Below are positions 2,491-64,000 of a DNA stretch of 64,000 bases, piece by piece. The notes under the pieces are model-generated. The model was not told where the DNA came from, ran no database searches, and was given only the letters and a program-made list of their open reading frames with translations. Numbering within the stretch: position 1 is the stretch's first letter; every line of letters begins with the position of its first letter. This stretch comes from Oscillospiraceae bacterium (GTDB lineage: Bacteria; Bacillota; Clostridia; Oscillospirales; CAG-272): assembly GCA_015063535.1 (NCBI GenBank), contig SVTY01000002.1, positions 16,034-80,033 of the forward strand, given 5' to 3'. Both the position numbers and the translations under genes were made by a program.

Positions 2491-3854
2491 AGAAAAACGA
2501 CTTTCTTACCCTCACCGTAGATGACCTGAACAACCTTGGCTGCGGTGTCGGTCATGCCCCTGACGGGCGGGCGGTGTTCGTCAAGGGTGCCGTCACGGGC
2601 GACACGGTACGGGTCAAGATCATCAAGGTCAATCAAAGCTACTGCGTAGCACGTCTCGAGGAGCTTCTCTCCCCCTCTCCGTATCGGCTCACAGCCGAGC
2701 ATTGTACGGCTCCCCTTTCCTGCGGCGGCTGTGTTTACCGCCATATTACCTATGAGCATGAGCTGGATCGGAAGCGATCCTATGTGGAGCATGCCTTTCG
2801 CAAGGCGGGGCTTGCTTCTGTGACCGTCCTACCCGTCAGAGCCACGAAGCAGATCTTTGGCTACCGCAATAAGGGGCAGTATCCTCTGCTCCAAACCAAG
2901 GAGGGCGTTCGGGCAGGCTTTTACGCCACGGGAACCCATCGGGTCATCTCCGCCGACGGATGTGCCATCCAGAATCCCGCCTTTGCCCCCATCGTTGCGT
3001 TCGTTTGCTCCTATGCCGATAAGGCAGGCTGGAGCGTGTATGACGAAATAACGGGCAAGGGGCTGTTGCGCCATATTTATCTGCGGATCGGCGAGCAGAC
3101 GGGCGAGATCATGGTCTGCCTTGTAATCAACGGCGACCGCCTGCCGAACGGAGAGGCGTTTGCGAAAGCTCTTTGCGAAGCCTTCCCCGCCGTCGTCGGC
3201 GTGCTGACCAATATCAATCGGGAAAACACCAATGTGGTGCTGGGCAAGAGCTATACCACCCTGCGGGGCAAAGCGTTTATTGAAGACGAGCTGTGCGGCC
3301 TTTGCTTCCGTATCAGCCCCGATTCCTTCTATCAGGTCAACCGCAAGGGTGCCGAATTGCTGTACGGCTTGGCGGCGGATTCGGCAGATCTGCAAGGAAA
3401 CGAGACTCTGCTTGACCTCTACTGCGGCACGGGAACCATCGGACTTTCCATGGCAAGCCGTGTCAAGCGGGTGCTTGGTGCCGAGATCGTTCCCGCCGCC
3501 GTGGCATGCGCCAAGGAGAATGCGGCACGCAACAAAATTGCCAATGCCGAATTTTTCTGCGCCGATGCGGGAGATCGGGAGACCATTCTCCGCATGACAG
3601 GCGGAGAACGCCCCGATGTCGTCGTCATCGACCCACCCCGCAAGGGAAGCACCAAAGCCTTGGCAGAATGCCTCGCCTCTTTGGAGGTACCCAAGATCGT
3701 CTATGTCTCCTGCGCCCCCGATACACTGGCAAGAGATTGTAAATGGTTCTCGGAAGCGGGTTATACAATTGGTTCCGTTCAGCCTGTCGATATGTTTCCG
3801 AGAACAGGGCACGTCGAGTCCGTCGTGTGCCTCACACGCACTTTCAACAACTAA
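2487..3854 (+). CDS. rlmD: 23S rRNA (uracil-C5)-methyltransferase, RumA/RlmD family with TRAM domain
   Basis: ATG at 2487 overlaps the upstream stop (ATGA). Has an N-terminal TRAM-like segment, a Cys cluster 'CGGCVY', the SAM motif 'LDLYCGTGTIG' and catalytic 'YVSCAP'. Confidence 0.9.
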   Translation: MKKNDFLTLTVDDLNNLGCGVGHAPDGRAVFVKGAVTGDTVRVKIIKVNQSYCVARLEELLSPSPYRLTAEHCTAPLSCGGCVYRHITYEHELDRKRSYVEHAFRKAGLASVTVLPVRATKQIFGYRNKGQYPLLQTKEGVRAGFYATGTHRVISADGCAIQNPAFAPIVAFVCSYADKAGWSVYDEITGKGLLRHIYLRIGEQTGEIMVCLVINGDRLPNGEAFAKALCEAFPAVVGVLTNINRENTNVVLGKSYTTLRGKAFIEDELCGLCFRISPDSFYQVNRKGAELLYGLAADSADLQGNETLLDLYCGTGTIGLSMASRVKRVLGAEIVPAAVACAKENAARNKIANAEFFCADAGDRETILRMTGGERPDVVVIDPPRKGSTKALAECLASLEVPKIVYVSCAPDTLARDCKWFSEAGYTIGSVQPVDMFPRTGHVESVVCLTRTFNN

Positions 3855-3872
3855 GTTTGCTTTTACGGGTAC

Positions 3873-3928
3873 ATCCTTAAGCCTTCCCTTGTCAGGGAAG
3901 GGGGACCGCATAGCGGTGGATGAGTAGT
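3873..3928. repeat. left arm of the inverted repeat enclosing the DUF559 gene
   Basis: ATCCTTAAGCCTTCCCTTGTCAGGGAAGGGGGACCGCATAGCGGTGGATGAGTAGT. Its reverse-complement partner lies at 4333-4390. The arm itself folds as two hairpins. Confidence 0.8.
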
Positions 3929-3948
3929 CCATACATACGAGGTAACAA

Positions 3949-4320
3949 ATGAAAGCATATAACAAAGCTTTGGTCAGCAATGCACAGGCTCTACGAAAAA
4001 ACATGACGCCCGAAGAAAAGCACCTTTGGTATGATTTTCTTAAGCGGTTACCAATGAAGGCGCACAGACAATATAACATTGGAAACTATATCGTTGATTT
4101 TTATATTCCCAAAAAACAACTTGTTATAGAAATTGACGGAATACAGCATCTAACTGAAGAACATAAAGAAAAAGACCAAACAAGAGATAAATTTCTTGAA
4201 GGACAAGGCTTGAGGGTACTAAGAGGTCCAAACGAGAGCATACGTAAAAATTTTGCCGATGTGTGTCAAGTCATACTAAATCACATCGACGTTAACTTTG
4301 AGGATTTAAAAGAAAGTTAA
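3949..4320 (+). CDS. DUF559 (Vsr-like) endonuclease domain protein
   Basis: 123 aa with 'MTPEEKHLWYDFL', 'IVDFY' and 'VIEIDGIQH' motifs of the DUF559 family. RBS GAGGT. AT-richer than the flanks. Confidence 0.8.
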   Translation: MKAYNKALVSNAQALRKNMTPEEKHLWYDFLKRLPMKAHRQYNIGNYIVDFYIPKKQLVIEIDGIQHLTEEHKEKDQTRDKFLEGQGLRVLRGPNESIRKNFADVCQVILNHIDVNFEDLKES

Positions 4321-57468: not shown

Positions 57469-57497
57469 ATAAAGGAATCAAACGCAAGGGGGATATC

Positions 57498-58355
57498 ATG
57501 AAGCGATCGGCGGAGGAGCTGTTGCGGGCATTTGCCCGAACGACGAATATGAGTATTTCTCTTTATGACAGAGGGCTTCACGGACTGTTTGGAAGTTCCG
57601 GCGGTCAATCGTCTCGGTTATGCTCCATGATTCATCGCTGTGAAGCCTGCCTGGGGCAATGTATCGAGTCGGATCGAGCCGCACGAAGCTTATGTCCCGA
57701 TTCGGGAGAGGCTATATCCTATCTATGCCCCTTTGGTATGTGTGAGATCATCGTAGCAGTTCGACAGAGCGGTTCTACCGTTGGCTACCTTCTTGCCGGA
57801 AAATCTCTGCCCGTGGGGGAGGATGCCGAGGATCGAGTGCGAGCGGCAGTGGCACCGTATCGGAAGGAGATCGGTAGCATGCCTCTTTTGGAGGAGGCAA
57901 TACAACAGGTTCCCCGCCATACACCCGACCAATACGATGCTATTTGCCGTATGCTGGAGGTCTTGGCGGAGGTCATCAGTGCGGATGATCTGTTTTTGGG
58001 ACAGGATGTGCGATTGCCCACCCTGATCCACCGATATTTGAAAAAAAATTATTACACACGGATCACGTTGCCGGAGCTGAGTGTATTGTTTCACTGTAAT
58101 ACGGTCACCCTCAGCGAAAAATTCCGTCGGGAATACGGACGAACGATCATTGAAGAATTGACAGAGATCCGATTGTCGCAGGCGAAAAAGCTGTTGGCGC
58201 AGACCGATCTTTCTGTGGAAGAGATCGCCGAGCGTTGCGGATTTTCGGAGCGGCGGTATTTTACCAAGTGCTTTCACCGCGCCGAAGGATATTCCCCCTC
58301 TCAGTGGCGGCTTATTCACGGAGACGATCGAAAATCAGCCTTGCCGGAATGGTAA
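57498..58355 (+). CDS. AraC family regulator with N-terminal PocR-like sensor domain
   Basis: 285 aa. A Cys-rich sensor ('CSMIHRCEACLGQC', 'YLCPFGMCEIIV', 'GYLLAGK') plus the AraC HTH ('GFSERRYFTKCF'). Confidence 0.75.
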   Translation: MKRSAEELLRAFARTTNMSISLYDRGLHGLFGSSGGQSSRLCSMIHRCEACLGQCIESDRAARSLCPDSGEAISYLCPFGMCEIIVAVRQSGSTVGYLLAGKSLPVGEDAEDRVRAAVAPYRKEIGSMPLLEEAIQQVPRHTPDQYDAICRMLEVLAEVISADDLFLGQDVRLPTLIHRYLKKNYYTRITLPELSVLFHCNTVTLSEKFRREYGRTIIEELTEIRLSQAKKLLAQTDLSVEEIAERCGFSERRYFTKCFHRAEGYSPSQWRLIHGDDRKSALPEW

Positions 58356-58404
58356 AAACCGATCACGTTGTGGATATTGTAACAGATTTTTCTCTCTTTG
58401 ACAA

Positions 58405-58440
58405 GGGAAAATCCTAAATAATAGGGGGAAAATTCTAAAT
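58405..58440 (+). repeat. two direct 15-mers GGGAAAATYCTAAAT spaced 21 bp
   Basis: 58405-58419 and 58426-58440, about 20 nt upstream of the mnmG ATG. Confidence 0.7.
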
Positions 58441-58459
58441 TCTGTTAGAAAGGAAAAAG

Positions 58460-60322
58460 ATGTCAGAATATACAGATATTGCCATAATTGGGGCGGGACA
58501 TGCGGGAATCGAAGCGGCGCTTGCCGCCGCAAGGACCGGGTCGGATACGGTTCTGTTTACCATGTCTCTTGAATCCATTGCCAATATGCCCTGTAACCCC
58601 TCCATTGGTGGCACAGGAAAGGGACATTTGGTCTATGAGATCGATGCTTTGGGGGGGGAGATGGGTCGTGTTACCGATCTGGTCACGCTGCAATCCCGTA
58701 CGCTGAATCTGGGAAAAGGGGCGGCGGTCCATTCCAAACGGGTACAGGCAGACCGAAAGGCGTATCATCGCTTGATGAAGCAGGTCTTGGAGACCACGCC
58801 GAATTTACGCTTGATTCAAGCCGAGATCGTGGAAATCGGTGTAGAAAACGGACAGGTCGTGTCGGTTACTACCCGCTTGGGAGAGCTTTGGCGTTGCCGT
58901 GCAGCCGTGATCTGTACGGGAACCTATTTGGATAGCCGTATTTTTGTGGGTGACGTGAATTATGAAAGCGGCCCCGACGGATTTCTTGCCGCCAAGGGCT
59001 TGTCGGATTGCTTGCGTGGGTTGGGGCTTCGGCTCATGCGATTCAAAACGGGAACCCCTGCCAGAGTGAATCGGCGTTCCATTGATTTTTCTGTGTTGGA
59101 GCGACAGGACGGAGAAACTCCCGTGATTCCCTACTCGGTTCTGACTGACGAGACATTTTTCGACGAGATTCAACAGCTTCCCTGCCATATTGTTTACACG
59201 AACGCCGAGACACATCGGATCATTCGGGAAAATATCACCCGCTCTGCCATGTATTCGGGGCAGATCCACGGAACGGGACCTCGGTATTGCCCTTCTATTG
59301 AAGATAAGCTGGTGCGTTTTGCGGATAAAGAGAGACATCAGCTCTTTGTGGAGCCTGTGGGAGCGGATACGGAGGAAATGTATTTGCAGGGCTTTTCCAC
59401 TTCCCTACCCGTGGATGTTCAGCACAGGATGCTCCGTTCTCTGCCCGGCTTTGAGCGGGCGGAGGTCATGCGGTATGCCTATGCGATCGAATACGATTGC
59501 CTTGATCCGACACAGCTCTATGCCTCGCTGGAGTGTAAGGAGATCCAAGGTCTGTACGGAGCGGGACAGTTTAACGGTACCTCGGGCTATGAGGAAGCGG
59601 CGGCACAGGGCTTGATTGCGGGCGTGAATGCTTCCCTGAAGCTGCACGGTAAGAAACCGTTGATCCTGAGCCGCTCGGAAAGCTATATCGGTACTTTGAT
59701 CGACGATCTGGTGACAAAAGGAACCAATGAGCCCTACCGTATGATGACCTCCCGCTCGGAATATCGGCTTCTGCTCCGTCAGGACAACGCAGATGCTCGC
59801 TTGACACCCAAGGGATATGCGGTTGGTTTGATCGACGAGAAACGATATAACCATTTTTTGGAAAAACAAAAGCAGGTGCGGCAGGAGCTCGAACGGATGG
59901 AAAAAACACATCTTTCTCCCGAACGTTGCAATCCGTTTTTAAGCTCTTTGGGAATGACCTCTGTTAATAGCGGTGTTTCTTTGGCGGATCTGCTCCGCCG
60001 TCCTGATATGACTTATGCGGCATTGGCTGCATTGGATTCAGCACGCCCTTCCCTTCCCCTTCGGGTTGTGATATCGGTGGAGGTTTCGATCAAATACGAG
60101 GGCTACATCAAAAGACAGTTGGCGGAGATCCGTCGGCATGAGAAGCTGGAGCAAAGACTGCTTCCGGAGGATCTCGATTATGCCGCTATTCGGGGTCTTC
60201 GATTGGAGGCGGCACAAAAGCTGGCACAGATCAAGCCCTTGACGGTCGGGCAAGCCTCTCGGATCAGCGGAGTGAATCCCGCAGACATTTCGGTTCTTTT
60301 GATTTATTTGGGAATGCATTAA
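58460..60322 (+). CDS. mnmG: tRNA uridine 5-carboxymethylaminomethyl modification enzyme MnmG (GidA)
   Basis: 620 aa with FAD motif 'IIGAGHAGIEAA' and 'GPRYCPSIEDK'. Confidence 0.95.
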   Translation: MSEYTDIAIIGAGHAGIEAALAAARTGSDTVLFTMSLESIANMPCNPSIGGTGKGHLVYEIDALGGEMGRVTDLVTLQSRTLNLGKGAAVHSKRVQADRKAYHRLMKQVLETTPNLRLIQAEIVEIGVENGQVVSVTTRLGELWRCRAAVICTGTYLDSRIFVGDVNYESGPDGFLAAKGLSDCLRGLGLRLMRFKTGTPARVNRRSIDFSVLERQDGETPVIPYSVLTDETFFDEIQQLPCHIVYTNAETHRIIRENITRSAMYSGQIHGTGPRYCPSIEDKLVRFADKERHQLFVEPVGADTEEMYLQGFSTSLPVDVQHRMLRSLPGFERAEVMRYAYAIEYDCLDPTQLYASLECKEIQGLYGAGQFNGTSGYEEAAAQGLIAGVNASLKLHGKKPLILSRSESYIGTLIDDLVTKGTNEPYRMMTSRSEYRLLLRQDNADARLTPKGYAVGLIDEKRYNHFLEKQKQVRQELERMEKTHLSPERCNPFLSSLGMTSVNSGVSLADLLRRPDMTYAALAALDSARPSLPLRVVISVEVSIKYEGYIKRQLAEIRRHEKLEQRLLPEDLDYAAIRGLRLEAAQKLAQIKPLTVGQASRISGVNPADISVLLIYLGMH

Positions 60323-60344
60323 CAAAAGCTATGATTTTTAAACA

Positions 60345-60360
60345 TGTTTCACGTGAAACA
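60345..60360. other. parS site 1
   Basis: Perfect palindrome TGTTTCACGTGAAACA between mnmG and rsmG. Confidence 0.9.
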
Positions 60361-60377
60361 AGCAAAGGATAAGAAAA

Positions 60378-61106
60378 ATGACAGAACAAGAATTTATGGA
60401 GGCATGCGAGCGAAGCTTTGCGCAGAATCATTTTGCTTGCTCTGCGAAACAGGCAAAGCAGCTATATGTGTTGACTTGCAGGATGCTGGAGGTCAACAAA
60501 AGCATGAATTTAACCGCAATTACCGACGAAAAAGAGGTGATTTTGCGGCATTATGTCGATTCCTTGACGGTATCGGCGCATATACCGCAACATGCGAGGG
60601 TGATCGATGTGGGATGCGGAGCCGGCTTCCCTTCTCTCCCCCTGGCGATCTTTCGCCCCGATCTGACCATTCTTTCCTTGGACGGAACAGCCAAACGGAT
60701 CGCATATGTAGCTGAAACTGCCCGTTTGTTGGGATTGGAACGATTGGAAGCGGTAGCGGGACGTGCGGAGGAGCTTGCCAATTCTTCTGCATATCGGGAG
60801 AGCTTTGATGTGGCTACTGCCCGTGCTGTGGCTTCCTTTCCGATTCTATGCGAGCTTTGCCTGCCCTTCGTTCGGGTTGGCGGTCAGATGATCGCCATGA
60901 AATCCCAACAAGCAACCGAGGAGCTGATGGCGGCAAAACACGGCATTTCCCTCTGCGGCGGTGGAAATACGACGGCAGTCTCCTGCGATCTTGTTTCCGA
61001 TTCGAGCGAAATCGAGCATCGAACCTTAATTTTGATTAAAAAAATTGAAGAAACTCCAAAAAAGTATCCCCGACATTTTTCTAAAATCTCTAAAAAACCC
61101 CTTTAA
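60378..61106 (+). CDS. rsmG: 16S rRNA (guanine527-N7)-methyltransferase RsmG (GidB)
   Basis: 242 aa with the SAM motif 'VIDVGCGAGFPSLPLAI'. Confidence 0.92.
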   Translation: MTEQEFMEACERSFAQNHFACSAKQAKQLYVLTCRMLEVNKSMNLTAITDEKEVILRHYVDSLTVSAHIPQHARVIDVGCGAGFPSLPLAIFRPDLTILSLDGTAKRIAYVAETARLLGLERLEAVAGRAEELANSSAYRESFDVATARAVASFPILCELCLPFVRVGGQMIAMKSQQATEELMAAKHGISLCGGGNTTAVSCDLVSDSSEIEHRTLILIKKIEETPKKYPRHFSKISKKPL

Positions 61107-61129
61107 AACTCTATTTCCCATTCAATCAC

Positions 61130-61161
61130 CCGACCCGATCTGTCATTCGGGTCGGTTTTTC
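61130..61161 (+). terminator. intrinsic terminator of rsmG
   Basis: CCGACCCGA TCTGTCAT TCGGGTCGG TTTTT. Confidence 0.75.
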
Positions 61162-61253
61162 TATCTCCAACCTCCTAAAAAAACATTTTCGGACACCCTT
61201 TCTTCGATGGCTTTTTTATTCCCCGTGTGATATAATAAAAGGCAGAAACGGAT

Positions 61254-61269
61254 TGTTTCACGTGAAACA
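61254..61269. other. parS site 2
   Basis: TGTTTCACGTGAAACA, about 18 nt downstream of a TGATATAAT extended -10 and 16-28 nt upstream of the noc-like start. Confidence 0.9.
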
Positions 61270-61296
61270 ATTCAAAAAGAAAGGATGGGTAAATGT

Positions 61297-62166
61297 ATGA
61301 CAGATCTGAAAGTGTTTAAAAAAACCAAGTCTGATGCGGAACAACTGGGAACGCCGGTCGTTCAAATCAAAACCGATGATATTCGTCCGAATCGAGCACA
61401 ACCGAGAGCAGAATTCGAACAAAATTCTATTATTCGGTTGGCGGATTCCATTCGTCGGTATGGGATCCTGCAACCGTTGACGGTACGGGTGTCGGATCCC
61501 GAGGATATCTACGGATACGAGTTGATTGCAGGAGAGCGACGGCTTCGAGCGGCTAAAATGTTAGGATATTTGACCGTTCCGTGCGTGATCATGGAGGTGG
61601 ACGAACAAACCGCGGCGGAGCTTGCTATTATCGAGAATCTGTTGCGTGAGGACTTGAATATGTTTGAACAGGCGTATGGGTTTAAAAAGCTGATCGAAAA
61701 TCATCATTTGACTCAAGAAGAGGTGGCACGTCGCATGTCATTGAGCCAATCTGCGGTGGCAAATAAGCTACGTTTGTTGCGATTATCCTATGAAGAACAG
61801 CGTTTGATCTTGGAGTCGGGCTTGACAGAACGGCATGCACGGGCAGTTTTGCGATTGGAACGGCCGCCGAAGCGGCTAAACGCACTTCAGCATATTACCG
61901 ATCACAAGCTGAATGTTCAGGCTTCGGAGCAATACATAGAAGAGCTTTTGGCGGAGGAAGAGCTTCGCCGTCGGGCGATGGAACGGATTTCGTCAGGTAG
62001 TAGGACGGTCAGAACCGATGTCTTTCAAGGGGAAAAAGAGATGATGGAAATGGTTCAGGTTTTGCGGCGACGTGTCGATTCTTGGAATAAAAGCGGTAAA
62101 CATGTTTCTATGGATGTGACAAACGGACAGAAAAGCGTTGAAATTTTGATTCGATTGGAAAAGTAA
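61297..62166 (+). CDS. noc: ParB-family protein, nucleoid-occlusion (Noc)-like
   Basis: 'IRPNRAQPR', 'YELIAGERRLRAAK' and the HTH 'TQEEVARRMSLSQSAVANKLRLLRL'. It lacks the N-terminal GLGRGL peptide. Start is 61297 or 61285. Confidence 0.8.
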   Translation: MTDLKVFKKTKSDAEQLGTPVVQIKTDDIRPNRAQPRAEFEQNSIIRLADSIRRYGILQPLTVRVSDPEDIYGYELIAGERRLRAAKMLGYLTVPCVIMEVDEQTAAELAIIENLLREDLNMFEQAYGFKKLIENHHLTQEEVARRMSLSQSAVANKLRLLRLSYEEQRLILESGLTERHARAVLRLERPPKRLNALQHITDHKLNVQASEQYIEELLAEEELRRRAMERISSGSRTVRTDVFQGEKEMMEMVQVLRRRVDSWNKSGKHVSMDVTNGQKSVEILIRLEK

Positions 62167-62171
62167 CGGGA

Positions 62172-62187
62172 TGTTTCACGTGAAACA
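62172..62187. other. parS site 3
   Basis: TGTTTCACGTGAAACA, 5 nt after the noc-like stop. Confidence 0.9.
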
Positions 62188-62206
62188 ACGCCTGTGCGGA
62201 TCAATA

Positions 62207-62222
62207 TGTTTCACGTGAAACA
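62207..62222. other. parS site 4
   Basis: TGTTTCACGTGAAACA, 19 nt after site 3. Confidence 0.9.
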
Positions 62223-62267
62223 CACGGAATAATCTAAATAAAATTTAAAAAAATCATAGCAAAGCCC

Positions 62268-62296
62268 TTGCATTGCAGGGGCTTTTGTGTTATAAT
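62268..62296 (+). promoter_or_regulatory. sigma-A-type promoter of parA
   Basis: TTGCAT, 17-nt spacer, TATAAT, with an extended -10 TGT. Overlaps the hairpin AGCCCTTGCATTGCAGGGGCT. Confidence 0.5.
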
Positions 62297-62388
62297 AATG
62301 GTGAATAAAGAAAATTTTGCGGTCTGTCCGAAAAATGGATCGCAATCGGTTAAAAATTGCGGAGAATCCGCAAAAGAAAGGAACAAGT

Positions 62389-63150
62389 ATGGGAAAAATT
62401 ATCTCATTTGCAAACCAAAAGGGCGGTGTCGGTAAGACGACCTCCTGTGTCAATATTGCCGCATCTCTTGGTATGCTGGGGCATAAGGTGCTGATTATCG
62501 ACCTTGACCCTCAGGGAAATACCACCAGCGGCGTGGGTGTGTCCAAAAAAGGCTTGAAGGCATCGACCAAAGAACTGTTGACCGGTGAAAAAACGGCGCA
62601 GGAAGTGATCGTGGAGACCCCGTATCAAAATTTGTCCGTGGTGCCTACCAATACCTCCTTGGCGGGAGCGGAGTTTGATCTGTTTGATTTTGACGAAAGC
62701 GAATTTCGCATGAAAACTGCTTTGGCAGAGGTGAAAAATGACTATGATTACATTCTGATCGACTGTCCGCCGTCGCTTGGAATGTTGACCATCAATGCCT
62801 TTGCGGCAAGCGACGGCGTGATCGTTCCAATGCAATGCGAGTTTTATGCGTTGGAGGGCCTTTCTCAGTTGATGATCACCATCAATCGGATCAAACGGCT
62901 GTATAATGCCGATCTGACGGTCAGCGGCATTCTCATTACCATGTACAACAGCCGCTTGCTGCTGTCCATGCAGGTGATCTCCGAACTGCAAAAACACTAT
63001 GCGGATAAGCTGTTTGAGACAAAAATATCCCGAAATGTCAAGCTGACAGAGGCGCCCGGCTTTGGAAAGCCTGCTTATTATCACGATAAAAATTCCAAGG
63101 GTGCCAAGGAATACATAGAGGTCGCAAAAGAGCTTGTAACTCGGATTTGA
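62389..63150 (+). CDS. soj: ParA/Soj chromosome partitioning ATPase
   Basis: ATG at 62389 with RBS AAAGGAA. Deviant Walker A 'NQKGGVGKTT' and 'IDLDPQGN'. Confidence 0.93.
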   Translation: MGKIISFANQKGGVGKTTSCVNIAASLGMLGHKVLIIDLDPQGNTTSGVGVSKKGLKASTKELLTGEKTAQEVIVETPYQNLSVVPTNTSLAGAEFDLFDFDESEFRMKTALAEVKNDYDYILIDCPPSLGMLTINAFAASDGVIVPMQCEFYALEGLSQLMITINRIKRLYNADLTVSGILITMYNSRLLLSMQVISELQKHYADKLFETKISRNVKLTEAPGFGKPAYYHDKNSKGAKEYIEVAKELVTRI

Positions 63151-63164
63151 CGGGAGGAAGAAAC

Positions 63165-63398
63165 ATGGCAAAAAAACCGTCCGGCTTGGGCAGAGGCTTG
63201 GGAGAGCTGATGGAGGACAACGCCCCGGAGATACACGGCGGAGGAACCGTGGTCAAACGGGAAGGCGCCGAATCCATTGTGATCACACCTACCTCGGGAG
63301 GCCCTTTGGATACGGCACAGGTCAAAAAGCCCAAGGGCTTATACGATGATCTGCCAAAAACCAACAGTCTGAAGGCAAATTTTAAAAATTTTAAGTAA
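63165..63398 (+). CDS. 77-aa protein consisting of a ParB-type N-terminal ParA-interaction peptide plus an unrecognised tail
   Basis: ATG at 63165 with GGGAGGAAG 4 nt upstream. The N-terminus 'MAKKPSGLGRGLGELM' is present, but no ParB-box, HTH or dimerisation region follows. Confidence 0.45.
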   Translation: MAKKPSGLGRGLGELMEDNAPEIHGGGTVVKREGAESIVITPTSGGPLDTAQVKKPKGLYDDLPKTNSLKANFKNFK

Positions 63399-63423
63399 AT
63401 TTAAGAAAGATAGGATGGAGAAA

Positions 63424-64000
63424 ATGGCAAAGAAAACCGAAGGAAGAGGACTCGGCAGAAGCTTTTATGACATCATGGGCGACAATGTTCTGGATGGCAA
63501 ATCGGGGGCAGGGGAAACTCTGCGGATCTCCGACATTGAGCCTCGGAGAGATCAGCCCAGAAAGACCTTTGACCGTGAGGCGTTGGAGGTTCTTGCCGAT
63601 TCGATCGGCACATACGGCGTCCTGCAGCCCATTATCGTGCGGGAAAATGCCACGGTGTCGGGTACGTACGAGATCATTGCGGGAGAACGGCGGTGGCGTG
63701 CCGCAAAAATGGCGGGACTGTCCGAGATCCCGGCTGTGGTATTTGACGGAGATGAGCTGAAGGCGGCACAGGTAGCCTTGATTGAAAACATTCAAAGAGA
63801 AGATCTGAATCCTGTGGAGGAAGCCATGGGATACGGAGCGTTAATCGAGAAATTCGGTCTGACACAGGATCAAGTCGCCAAGCAGGTGGGACGGAGCCGT
63901 TCGGCGGTTGCCAATATGCTCCGCCTGTTGGATCTGCCCGATGAGGTATTGGAGATGCTTCGGGTGGGGGATCTTTCTGCCGGTCACGCCAGAGCCTTGC
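63424..64000 (+). CDS. spo0J: ParB/Spo0J chromosome partitioning protein (3' end beyond window)
   Basis: Not in the ORF track because no stop lies inside the window. My translation from ATG 63424 gives 'MAKKTEGRGLGRSFYDIM...ISDIEPRRDQPRK...YEIIAGERRWRAAK...IENIQREDLNPVEEA...QVGRSRSAVANMLRLL'. Confidence 0.9.
   Translation, partial: MAKKTEGRGLGRSFYDIMGDNVLDGKSGAGETLRISDIEPRRDQPRKTFDREALEVLADSIGTYGVLQPIIVRENATVSGTYEIIAGERRWRAAKMAGLSEIPAVVFDGDELKAAQVALIENIQREDLNPVEEAMGYGALIEKFGLTQDQVAKQVGRSRSAVANMLRLLDLPDEVLEMLRVGDLSAGHARAL

Follow-up and report, generated by a model that had tools for sequence, protein, structure and literature searches.

Control of the chromosome segregation ATPase ParA (Soj) is normally ascribed to a single operon-encoded partner, ParB (Spo0J). 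Can the same operon encode another? The question is raised by a 64,000-nucleotide (nt) stretch of contig SVTY01000002.1 from an Oscillospiraceae bacterium (hereafter, the window), in which a second conserved, partner-like protein is wedged between parA and parB. The protein is 77 amino acids long and is encoded on the plus strand by a small open reading frame (ORF) at 63165-63398, which we call X. We found X to be a genuine gene, with a ParB-type ParA-binding motif at the N-terminus of its product and a second conserved module at the C-terminus. On the strength of its sequence, X probably acts as a third, previously undescribed partner for the segregation ATPase ParA in a clade of uncultured gut Clostridia.

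A conserved gene between parA and parB

The reading frame of X begins with an ATG at 63165, encodes the product MAKKPSGLGRGLGELMEDNAPEIHGGGTVVKREGAESIVITPTSGGPLDTAQVKKPKGLYDDLPKTNSLKANFKNFK, and is closed by a stop codon ending at 63398. Its Shine-Dalgarno (SD) sequence, GGGAGGAAG, begins 1 nt 3' of the parA stop codon (63148-63150) and is followed by a 4-nt spacer. The distance from the parA stop to the X start is 14 nt, that from the X stop to the parB start is 25 nt, and no promoter-like or terminator-like site was found between the genes of the parA-X-parB unit. The parB product starts at 63424 as MAKKTEGRGLGRSFYDIM, and the complete protein, as encoded on identical contigs (L056), has 298 amino acids. 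When re-read, the coordinates of the stand-alone ORF and its strong SD were exactly as the first-pass annotation of this DNA had given them.

A word-indexed search recovered 69 small homologues of X (61-103 amino acids, 37-100% identity), none of which has a Pfam domain and which the databases label 'hypothetical protein'. When 1.8 billion representatives were searched exhaustively with a profile, a family of 72 representatives at 50% identity emerged, ranging from 39 to 160 amino acids. Full-length ParB was absent from these 72 profile matches, all of which are 160 amino acids or shorter and without an annotated domain. Identical copies of the protein encoded in the window also occur on over 20 metagenomic contigs. 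Scanning X against Pfam and NCBIfam gave no match even at E<=1, whereas the flanking ParB, and the Noc-like ParB paralogue encoded upstream of parA, matched strongly. We located no published account of a gene between parA and parB or of a ParB-peptide mimic, in literature searches, one of which was drowned in hits to generic terms.

We then scanned one genome per species, which yielded 49 loci. Thirty-five of these, referred to as in-clade, encode a ParA at least 74% identical to that of the window; a further 13, from Anaerotruncus and others, encode a ParA that is 51-70% identical and serve as the outgroup. X lies between parA and parB in all 35 in-clade loci, preceded by an SD-like site in 34 of the 35 orthologues. 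It is absent from all 13 outgroup loci, where the match is instead the N-terminus of ParB, and where parA and parB are separated by only 4-39 nt in nine cases. The position also holds at the edges of the family: the long subfamily (160 amino acids) shows the order mnmG-rsmG-noc-parA-X-parB-serS seen elsewhere in the family, and the gene of a divergent subfamily with an N-terminal extension likewise lies between parA and parB.

Saturation at synonymous sites precluded a family-wide ratio of nonsynonymous to synonymous substitution rates (dN/dS), and the comparison was restricted to the closest pairs. In these, the proportion of synonymous differences (pS) in X is already near saturation at 0.39-0.59, while that of nonsynonymous differences (pN) is 0.01-0.08. 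The resulting dN/dS of 0.010-0.083 is close to the values for parA (0.010-0.032) and parB (0.020-0.038). One parA value was discarded because of a frameshift on its contig: at L012 (~1745-2505) the gene is split into two tblastn segments that overlap at residues 41-42, probably through an assembly error.

X is thus a genuine conserved gene under strongly purifying selection, and its 69 homologues, 72 family representatives, invariable synteny and low dN/dS show that it is not a chance ORF. The first-pass annotation had allowed that X might be a remnant of a partial parB duplication. As an account of origin this is likely, as discussed below, but the idea of a dead remnant is rejected because selection on X is purifying and the gene has been kept at all 35 in-clade loci. 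A short ORF that belongs to no Pfam or NCBIfam family and whose N-terminus resembles that of the next gene downstream does invite such a view. Nevertheless, that X is a non-functional leftover or a spurious ORF is scarcely credible given the excess of pS over pN in the closest pairs, the conserved SD, the size of the family, and the presence of a C-terminal module not found in ParB.

The N-terminal peptide and its likely source

The N-terminal module of X (residues 1-21) is the part that links it to ParB. In the alignment of X orthologues, M1, A2, K3, K4, G7, L8, G9, R10, L15, D18 and N19 are invariant, which amounts to nine invariant positions among residues 1-16, and pN is 0.14 in this module versus 0.59 in the linker that follows. 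ParB's ParA-binding motif has been defined as LG(R/K)GL (PMC9712426) and, for searching, as the regular expression (L|F|I)G[KR]G(L|F|I) (PMC12704722). Residues 8-12 of X, LGRGL, fit both. The strict expression is matched by 32 of 36 X orthologues, and the other four read LGRSL or LGRAF. In Myxococcus xanthus ParB, L11, R13, L15, L18 and I19 are each needed for ParA binding, giving the pattern h-G-[KR]-x-h-x-x-h-h, with four large hydrophobic residues and a central basic one (PMC12462528). This five-position pattern, represented in X by L8, R10, L12, L15 and M16, is present in 36 of 36 orthologues.

When the X profile was compared with all PDB sequences, the sole match was to residues 1-16 of Thermus thermophilus Spo0J (1VZ0_A, E=0.024), which starts MSRKPSGLGRGLEALL and is identical to X at 11 of 16 residues. 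The first-pass annotation had pointed to this resemblance, and the deposited sequence bears it out. For X against ParB N-termini, hhalign gives 96-97% probability over 20-32 columns. The first 20 residues of Thermus Spo0J suffice to stimulate Soj, according to the portion of PMC7993993 that cites Leonard 2005. In the AlphaFold 2 (AF2) model of X, a helix at residues 12-19 is the block with the highest predicted local distance difference test score (pLDDT, 80). Judged by its motif, the N-terminus of X is a ParB-type ParA-binding peptide, from which we infer that X binds ParA.

The partner protein appears equipped to receive such a peptide. The closest solved structure to the ParA of the window is that of M. 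xanthus ParA (8RAY, E=7e-75), to which it aligns without gaps. The M. xanthus pocket residues V116, L150, L152, L155, L187 and L192 correspond to F96, L130, M132, I135, R167 and Y172, so that five of the six positions are hydrophobic or aromatic, the sixth being R167. By this alignment, the ParB-binding pocket is largely retained. A ParA dimer has two such pockets, face to face, both of which probably need to be occupied for full activation, and the juxtaposed peptides in closed ParB clamps activate ParA more than 10-fold better than single peptides that are not linked (PMC12462528). A change of the pocket accompanying the gain of X was tested for and rejected, as the pockets of in-clade ParA and of the nearest outgroup are nearly alike.

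X is not itself a ParB (TIGR00180), because it has no CTP-hydrolysing (CTPase) fold with its GERRxRA box, no helix-turn-helix (HTH) and no dimerization domain, and because the hhalign match ends at column 20-32. Chromosomal ParB/Spo0J carries the same motif, LGRGL followed by x-x-L-[LMF] and preceded by lysines, in an unstructured region at its extreme N-terminus; in X, by contrast, the peptide has no CTPase, HTH or dimerization body attached. X should therefore be unable to bind parS, to clamp DNA, or to juxtapose its peptides by clamp closure.

The canonical peptide, MAKKPSGLG[RK]G, is borne by ParB in the outgroup. The in-clade ParB N-terminus has drifted to MAKK..GLGR[DSGQ]FY.I..DN and matches the strict expression in 12 of 36 cases, while the relaxed five-position pattern is kept in 36 of 36. 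The first-pass annotation had called the motif of the downstream ParB more degenerate than that of X, which holds insofar as LGRSF..IM fails the strict expression, although all five key positions are intact. Because those positions are kept, the in-clade ParB motif is probably not dead. Within the subgroup to which the window belongs, ParB also has a two-residue GR insertion (63424-63480, EGRGLGRSF), which creates overlapping GRGL and LGRSF registers. A divergent lineage (L054, with X at 85-339 and parB at 308-871; L055) has gone further: X runs 32 nt past the start of parB and has an N-terminal extension of ~25 residues (MAIIRKIDGRTVVE…) that makes its motif internal, and ParB, reading GLGIDFW, has lost the basic residue, whereas X retains GLGRGL.

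The N-terminus of X is 65% identical over 20 residues to outgroup ParB and 38% identical over 32 residues to the ParB of its own genome. The most likely origin of X, as far as the sequences indicate, is a partial duplication of the 5' end of parB. In the simplest form of this scenario, a single partial tandem duplication would have occurred in the ancestor of the clade; the duplicate would have kept the ancestral ParA-docking peptide, shed the rest of ParB and acquired the C-terminal module, after which the tail of ParB itself would have drifted.

The parA-parB junction seems to tolerate insertions more generally. Two Anaerotruncus-like outgroup loci carry unrelated genes there (L032, 2952-3989; L048, 2777-3991), which encode a 345-amino-acid protein bearing a zinc ribbon at its C-terminus and a 404-amino-acid polytopic membrane protein, and in two others (L029 and L033, ~3673-4000) all that is left of the zinc-ribbon gene is a decayed fragment. 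None of the long outgroup parA-parB gaps (L029, L033, L044, L032 and L048) contains a homologue of X; what fills them is the zinc-ribbon gene in decayed form, inserted genes unrelated to X, or a parS site.

The C-terminal module and the possible action of X

According to the first-pass annotation, X carries only the ParA-activating peptide, and its remaining ~60 residues have no ParB features. The second statement agrees with the lack of any Pfam or NCBIfam match, but the first must be corrected, since the last ~22 residues form a second, equally conserved module, [KR]S[LIV]KA.F[KR].[FY]K. Between the two modules lies a linker that is semi-conserved at its start (PE[IV]R..G.VV.R.....) and otherwise free in length and sequence; in the long subfamily it is acidic and reaches ~110 residues. 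The full consensus of the C module, K.LY[ED]..[KR][NRT][RK]-S-[LIV]-K-A-[NLV]-F-[KR]-x-[FY]-K, was found in 103 of 128 family proteins, and in all but four of them just 0-5 residues follow it before the protein ends. Among these 103 copies, the Ser is kept in 99, the Lys in 95, the Ala in 91 and the Phe in 95. AF2, run with a 36-sequence family alignment, gives a low-confidence model with helices at residues 12-19 and 69-73 only (mean pLDDT 66, predicted template modelling score 0.21). Apart from these two short helices, X is thus predicted to be an intrinsically disordered chain.

What might such a protein do? We favor a reading to which we assign a probability of roughly 0.45, namely that X docks on ATP-bound ParA through its N-terminal helix and that its C-terminal helix is a tether, the membrane being the most likely anchor. 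The binding, the tether and the direction of the effect (activation or sequestration) are all inferred from sequence. The N helix (L8, R10, L12, L15 and M16) would insert into the hydrophobic pocket formed where the subunits of the ATP-bound ParA dimer meet, as the ParB peptide does; X would therefore bind only ParA-ATP dimers, either competing or cooperating with ParB. The cationic amphipathic C helix would provide a weak second anchor, for which the cytoplasmic membrane, the target in MinD and Noc, is the likeliest site. X peptides crowded on a surface might then gain an avidity that the single peptide lacks. The net outcome would be that, at sites other than the ParB-parS complex, ParA/Soj is recruited, sequestered or turned over locally. 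The need for a surface follows from the weakness of lone peptides: with single peptides more than 10-fold weaker (PMC12462528), monovalent X is unlikely to be a potent free activator, and would have to be concentrated on a surface or act as a competitor. The conservation of the C module likewise argues for a tethered or adaptor protein over a freely diffusing peptide.

Properties of the C helix are compatible with a membrane role in part. Its hydrophobic moment is 0.50-0.68 and its charge +3/+4, values comparable to those of the membrane-targeting helices of MinD, FtsA and Noc (moments of 0.41, 0.61 and 0.47), and in the long forms of X the helix reads RSLKALFRSYK. As predicted for X, MinD, FtsA, Noc and RocS have a short cationic amphipathic helix at a protein terminus after a variable spacer; unlike theirs, the putative membrane helix of X has a lower mean hydrophobicity and often places a polar Asn on its hydrophobic face. 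The Noc membrane helix is highly conserved, intrinsically weak and works only when multimerized (PMC4331003), and because it is as conserved as the C module, the conservation of the latter does not speak against a membrane role.

Several observations nonetheless weigh against tethered docking as we picture it. The amphipathicity of the C helix is modest (median z of 1.57 against shuffled sequences, with a mean of 12% of shuffles reaching its moment), and in the window the helix has a mean hydrophobicity of 0.09 versus 0.27-0.41 in MinD, FtsA and Noc. The tails differ in some X subfamilies (…LYRKDGVLNVQKSKRFRY, …SVLSNYR), and the near-invariant Ser, Lys, Ala and Phe of the C module would suit a specific protein contact at least equally well. 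In addition, the ParB of in-clade genomes still has a plausible motif, so X is not a mere replacement for it, and every carrier of X is an uncultured metagenome-assembled genome.

Some of these observations lend weight to an adaptor, a somewhat unlikely alternative in which the N module binds ParA and the C module serves as a short linear motif recognizing a particular protein or DNA. ParA would in that case be connected through X to a second cargo or site, candidate partners being ParB, the Noc-like paralogue, or a division or polar protein. The very strict pattern of the C module is typical of protein-binding linear motifs, the amphipathicity of its helix is only moderately above that of shuffles, and six of its 15 residues are basic, which might permit DNA contact. 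Moreover, ParB-type peptides do occur on other proteins (ParZ, PadC and KorB), with PadC joining ParA to bactofilins and ParZ joining ParA to its own centromere. However, the sequence names no partner, and strictness by itself does not tell against a membrane helix, given the equal conservation in Noc. As for DNA, the AF2 model contains no folded DNA-binding domain, and the long acidic linkers of the subfamily with 100-160 amino acids disfavor coating of DNA. The PDB profile search matched nothing to the C module, and readings of it as a clamp-binding (QLxLF-type) or FtsZ-tail-like motif were dropped as their defining residues are missing.

We regard as unlikely the proposal that X is a membrane-anchored mimic of the ParB tail, pulling ATP-bound Soj/ParA dimers and their DNA to the membrane or stripping them there. 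Were it true, X would found a class of 'peptide-only' ParA regulators, chromosomal ParA would gain a MinD-like surface cycle, and the diverged tail of ParB would be freed for a separate task, as with ParZ and ParB but without a DNA-binding domain.

The first-pass annotation had envisaged a free peptide that stimulates ParA or competes for it. As a soluble modulator of this kind, X would stimulate ATP hydrolysis by ParA everywhere or block the ParB pocket. It would thereby set the balance of ParA dimers and monomers and, through Soj, the activity of DnaA, with the C module serving only stability or turnover. The canonical peptide alone does suffice for ATPase stimulation in other systems, X is made alongside ParA from the same operon, and in Bacillus subtilis the monomeric and dimeric forms of Soj differ in how they regulate DnaA (PMC7022226). 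Yet monomeric peptides are weak activators, and uniform activation would be expected, from the diffusion-ratchet model, to flatten the ParA gradient needed for segregation. This proposal also leaves unexplained why the C helix is as strongly conserved as the N module when the linkers are saturated, and we consider it quite unlikely.

A bivalent clamp is highly improbable. Here both helices of X would bind ParA, one molecule spanning both dimer pockets as a closed ParB clamp does. The C helix residues L69, F73 and F76 share the i, i+4, i+7 spacing of L8, L12 and L15, the linker is flexible and variable in length, and the two face-to-face pockets probably must both be filled for full activation (PMC12462528). 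That spacing, however, is generic to amphipathic helices; the C helix has no G-[KR]-G core and has Lys in place of the fourth hydrophobic residue, and the profile search aligned the C module neither to the N module nor to ParB.

The nearest precedent for X is ParZ of Borrelia burgdorferi, which we compared by its description only. ParZ, too, has a ParB-type N-terminal peptide on a non-ParB protein encoded directly after parA; it controls ParA, and its proposed origin is the capture of a ParB N-terminal peptide sequence (PMC9712426). ParZ binds the centromere, spreads on DNA and takes the place of ParB as the partner of ParA, the Borrelia ParB having lost the peptide (PMC9712426). Compared with this description, X differs in having no predicted DNA-binding fold, in standing beside a ParB with a motif-like N-terminus, and in its C-terminal amphipathic helix.

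The same partner logic applies to PomX (Myxococcus), ParG (plasmid TP228), MinE, McdB and PadC. Partners of ParA and MinD contact the ATPase dimer through a short N-terminal peptide that is unstructured and contains essential basic residues (PMC7993993), and by analogy X may act like ParB, ParZ, PadC, PomX, ParG and MinE. Two partners on one ATPase, as proposed here, are found with PomX/PomY and with ParB/PadC. PomX, ParG, MinE, McdB and PadC, however, have folded or coiled-coil bodies that define the cargo, whereas X has ~77 predicted disordered residues and a terminal helix. No similarity of X to these five proteins was detected in the Pfam and NCBIfam family scans, and X is not ParG-like (type Ib, ~76 amino acids), because AF2 shows no ribbon-helix-helix fold and there is no match to a ribbon-helix-helix family.

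If X does bind ParA, the docking peptide would be a portable module, copied off parB and reused. X would then offer a natural minimal tool for studying how a monovalent, differently tethered peptide affects the ParA gradient, a question that arises directly from recent work on how closed ParB clamps juxtapose their peptides (PMC12462528). It would also be an added regulator of Soj, and possibly of DnaA, in abundant uncultured Clostridia of the ruminant gut.

The surrounding origin region

The features of X and its neighbors are collected in Table 1.

Table 1. Coordinates in the window of X, its parts and the adjacent segregation genes and sites
Feature	Position	Strand	Remarks
parA/soj	62389..63150	+	253 amino acids; heads the transcription unit; Pfam AAA_31/CbiA/ParA
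SD sequence of X, GGGAGGAAG	63152..63160	+	4 nt before ATG
X	63165..63398	+	77 amino acids plus stop; predicted disordered protein with ParB-type ParA-binding peptide (by motif)
N module, residues 1-21, MAKKPSGLGRGLGELMEDNAP	63165..63227	+	Invariant residues, regular-expression match, PDB match, hhalign
Putative ParA-binding core, L8-G-R10-G-L12-x-x-L15-M16	63186-63212	+	Inside N module of X
Variable linker, residues 22-55	63228..63329	+	Alignments; pLDDT 55-63; without secondary structure
C module, residues 56-77, PKGLYDDLPKTNSLKANFKNFK	63330..63395	+	Consensus at C-terminus; AF2 helix 69-73
Terminal cationic amphipathic helix (predicted), SLKANFKNFK	63366-63395	+	End of C module
parB/spo0J, 5' part	63424..64000	+	Window ends inside gene; Pfam ParB_N plus HTH_ParB
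Diverged putative ParA-binding motif of ParB, L10-G-R12-S-F14-x-x-I17-M18	63451-63477	+	
Noc-like ParB paralogue	61297..62166	+	Pfam ParB_N plus HTH_ParB; upstream neighbor of parA
Perfect parS sites (TGTTTCACGTGAAACA)	60345-60360, 61254-61269, 62172-62187, 62207-62222		

Positions 45411-64000 of the window make up the replication-origin region, with dnaA, dnaN, recF, gyrB, gyrA, mnmG, rsmG, the noc-like gene, parA, X and parB; on identical contigs (L056) the next gene after parB is serS. The sets dnaA-dnaN-recF-gyrB-gyrA and mnmG-rsmG-noc-parA-X-parB form a single run on one strand. In B. subtilis these two sets are divergent around oriC. Between gyrA and an AraC-like gene are two ORFs of 300 and 464 amino acids (54779-55678 and 55726-57117), neither of which has a Pfam match at E<=1e-5.

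The Noc-like paralogue scores 243 against TIGR04285, under the cut-off of 315. Examination of the N-termini of these proteins revealed no ParA-binding motif, as the first-pass annotation had stated. They instead share MT[DE]LKYFK[RK].K, conserved clade-wide (L001-L047), which may be a Noc-type membrane helix of a flavor similar to that of the C helix of X.

The window contains four perfect matches to the parS sequence, compared with 0.01 expected by chance. The four sites flank rsmG, the noc-like gene and the parA promoter region, the last two of them sitting directly upstream of parA. Several 'MFHVKQ' ORFs in the six-frame list are spurious, being translations of these parS sites.

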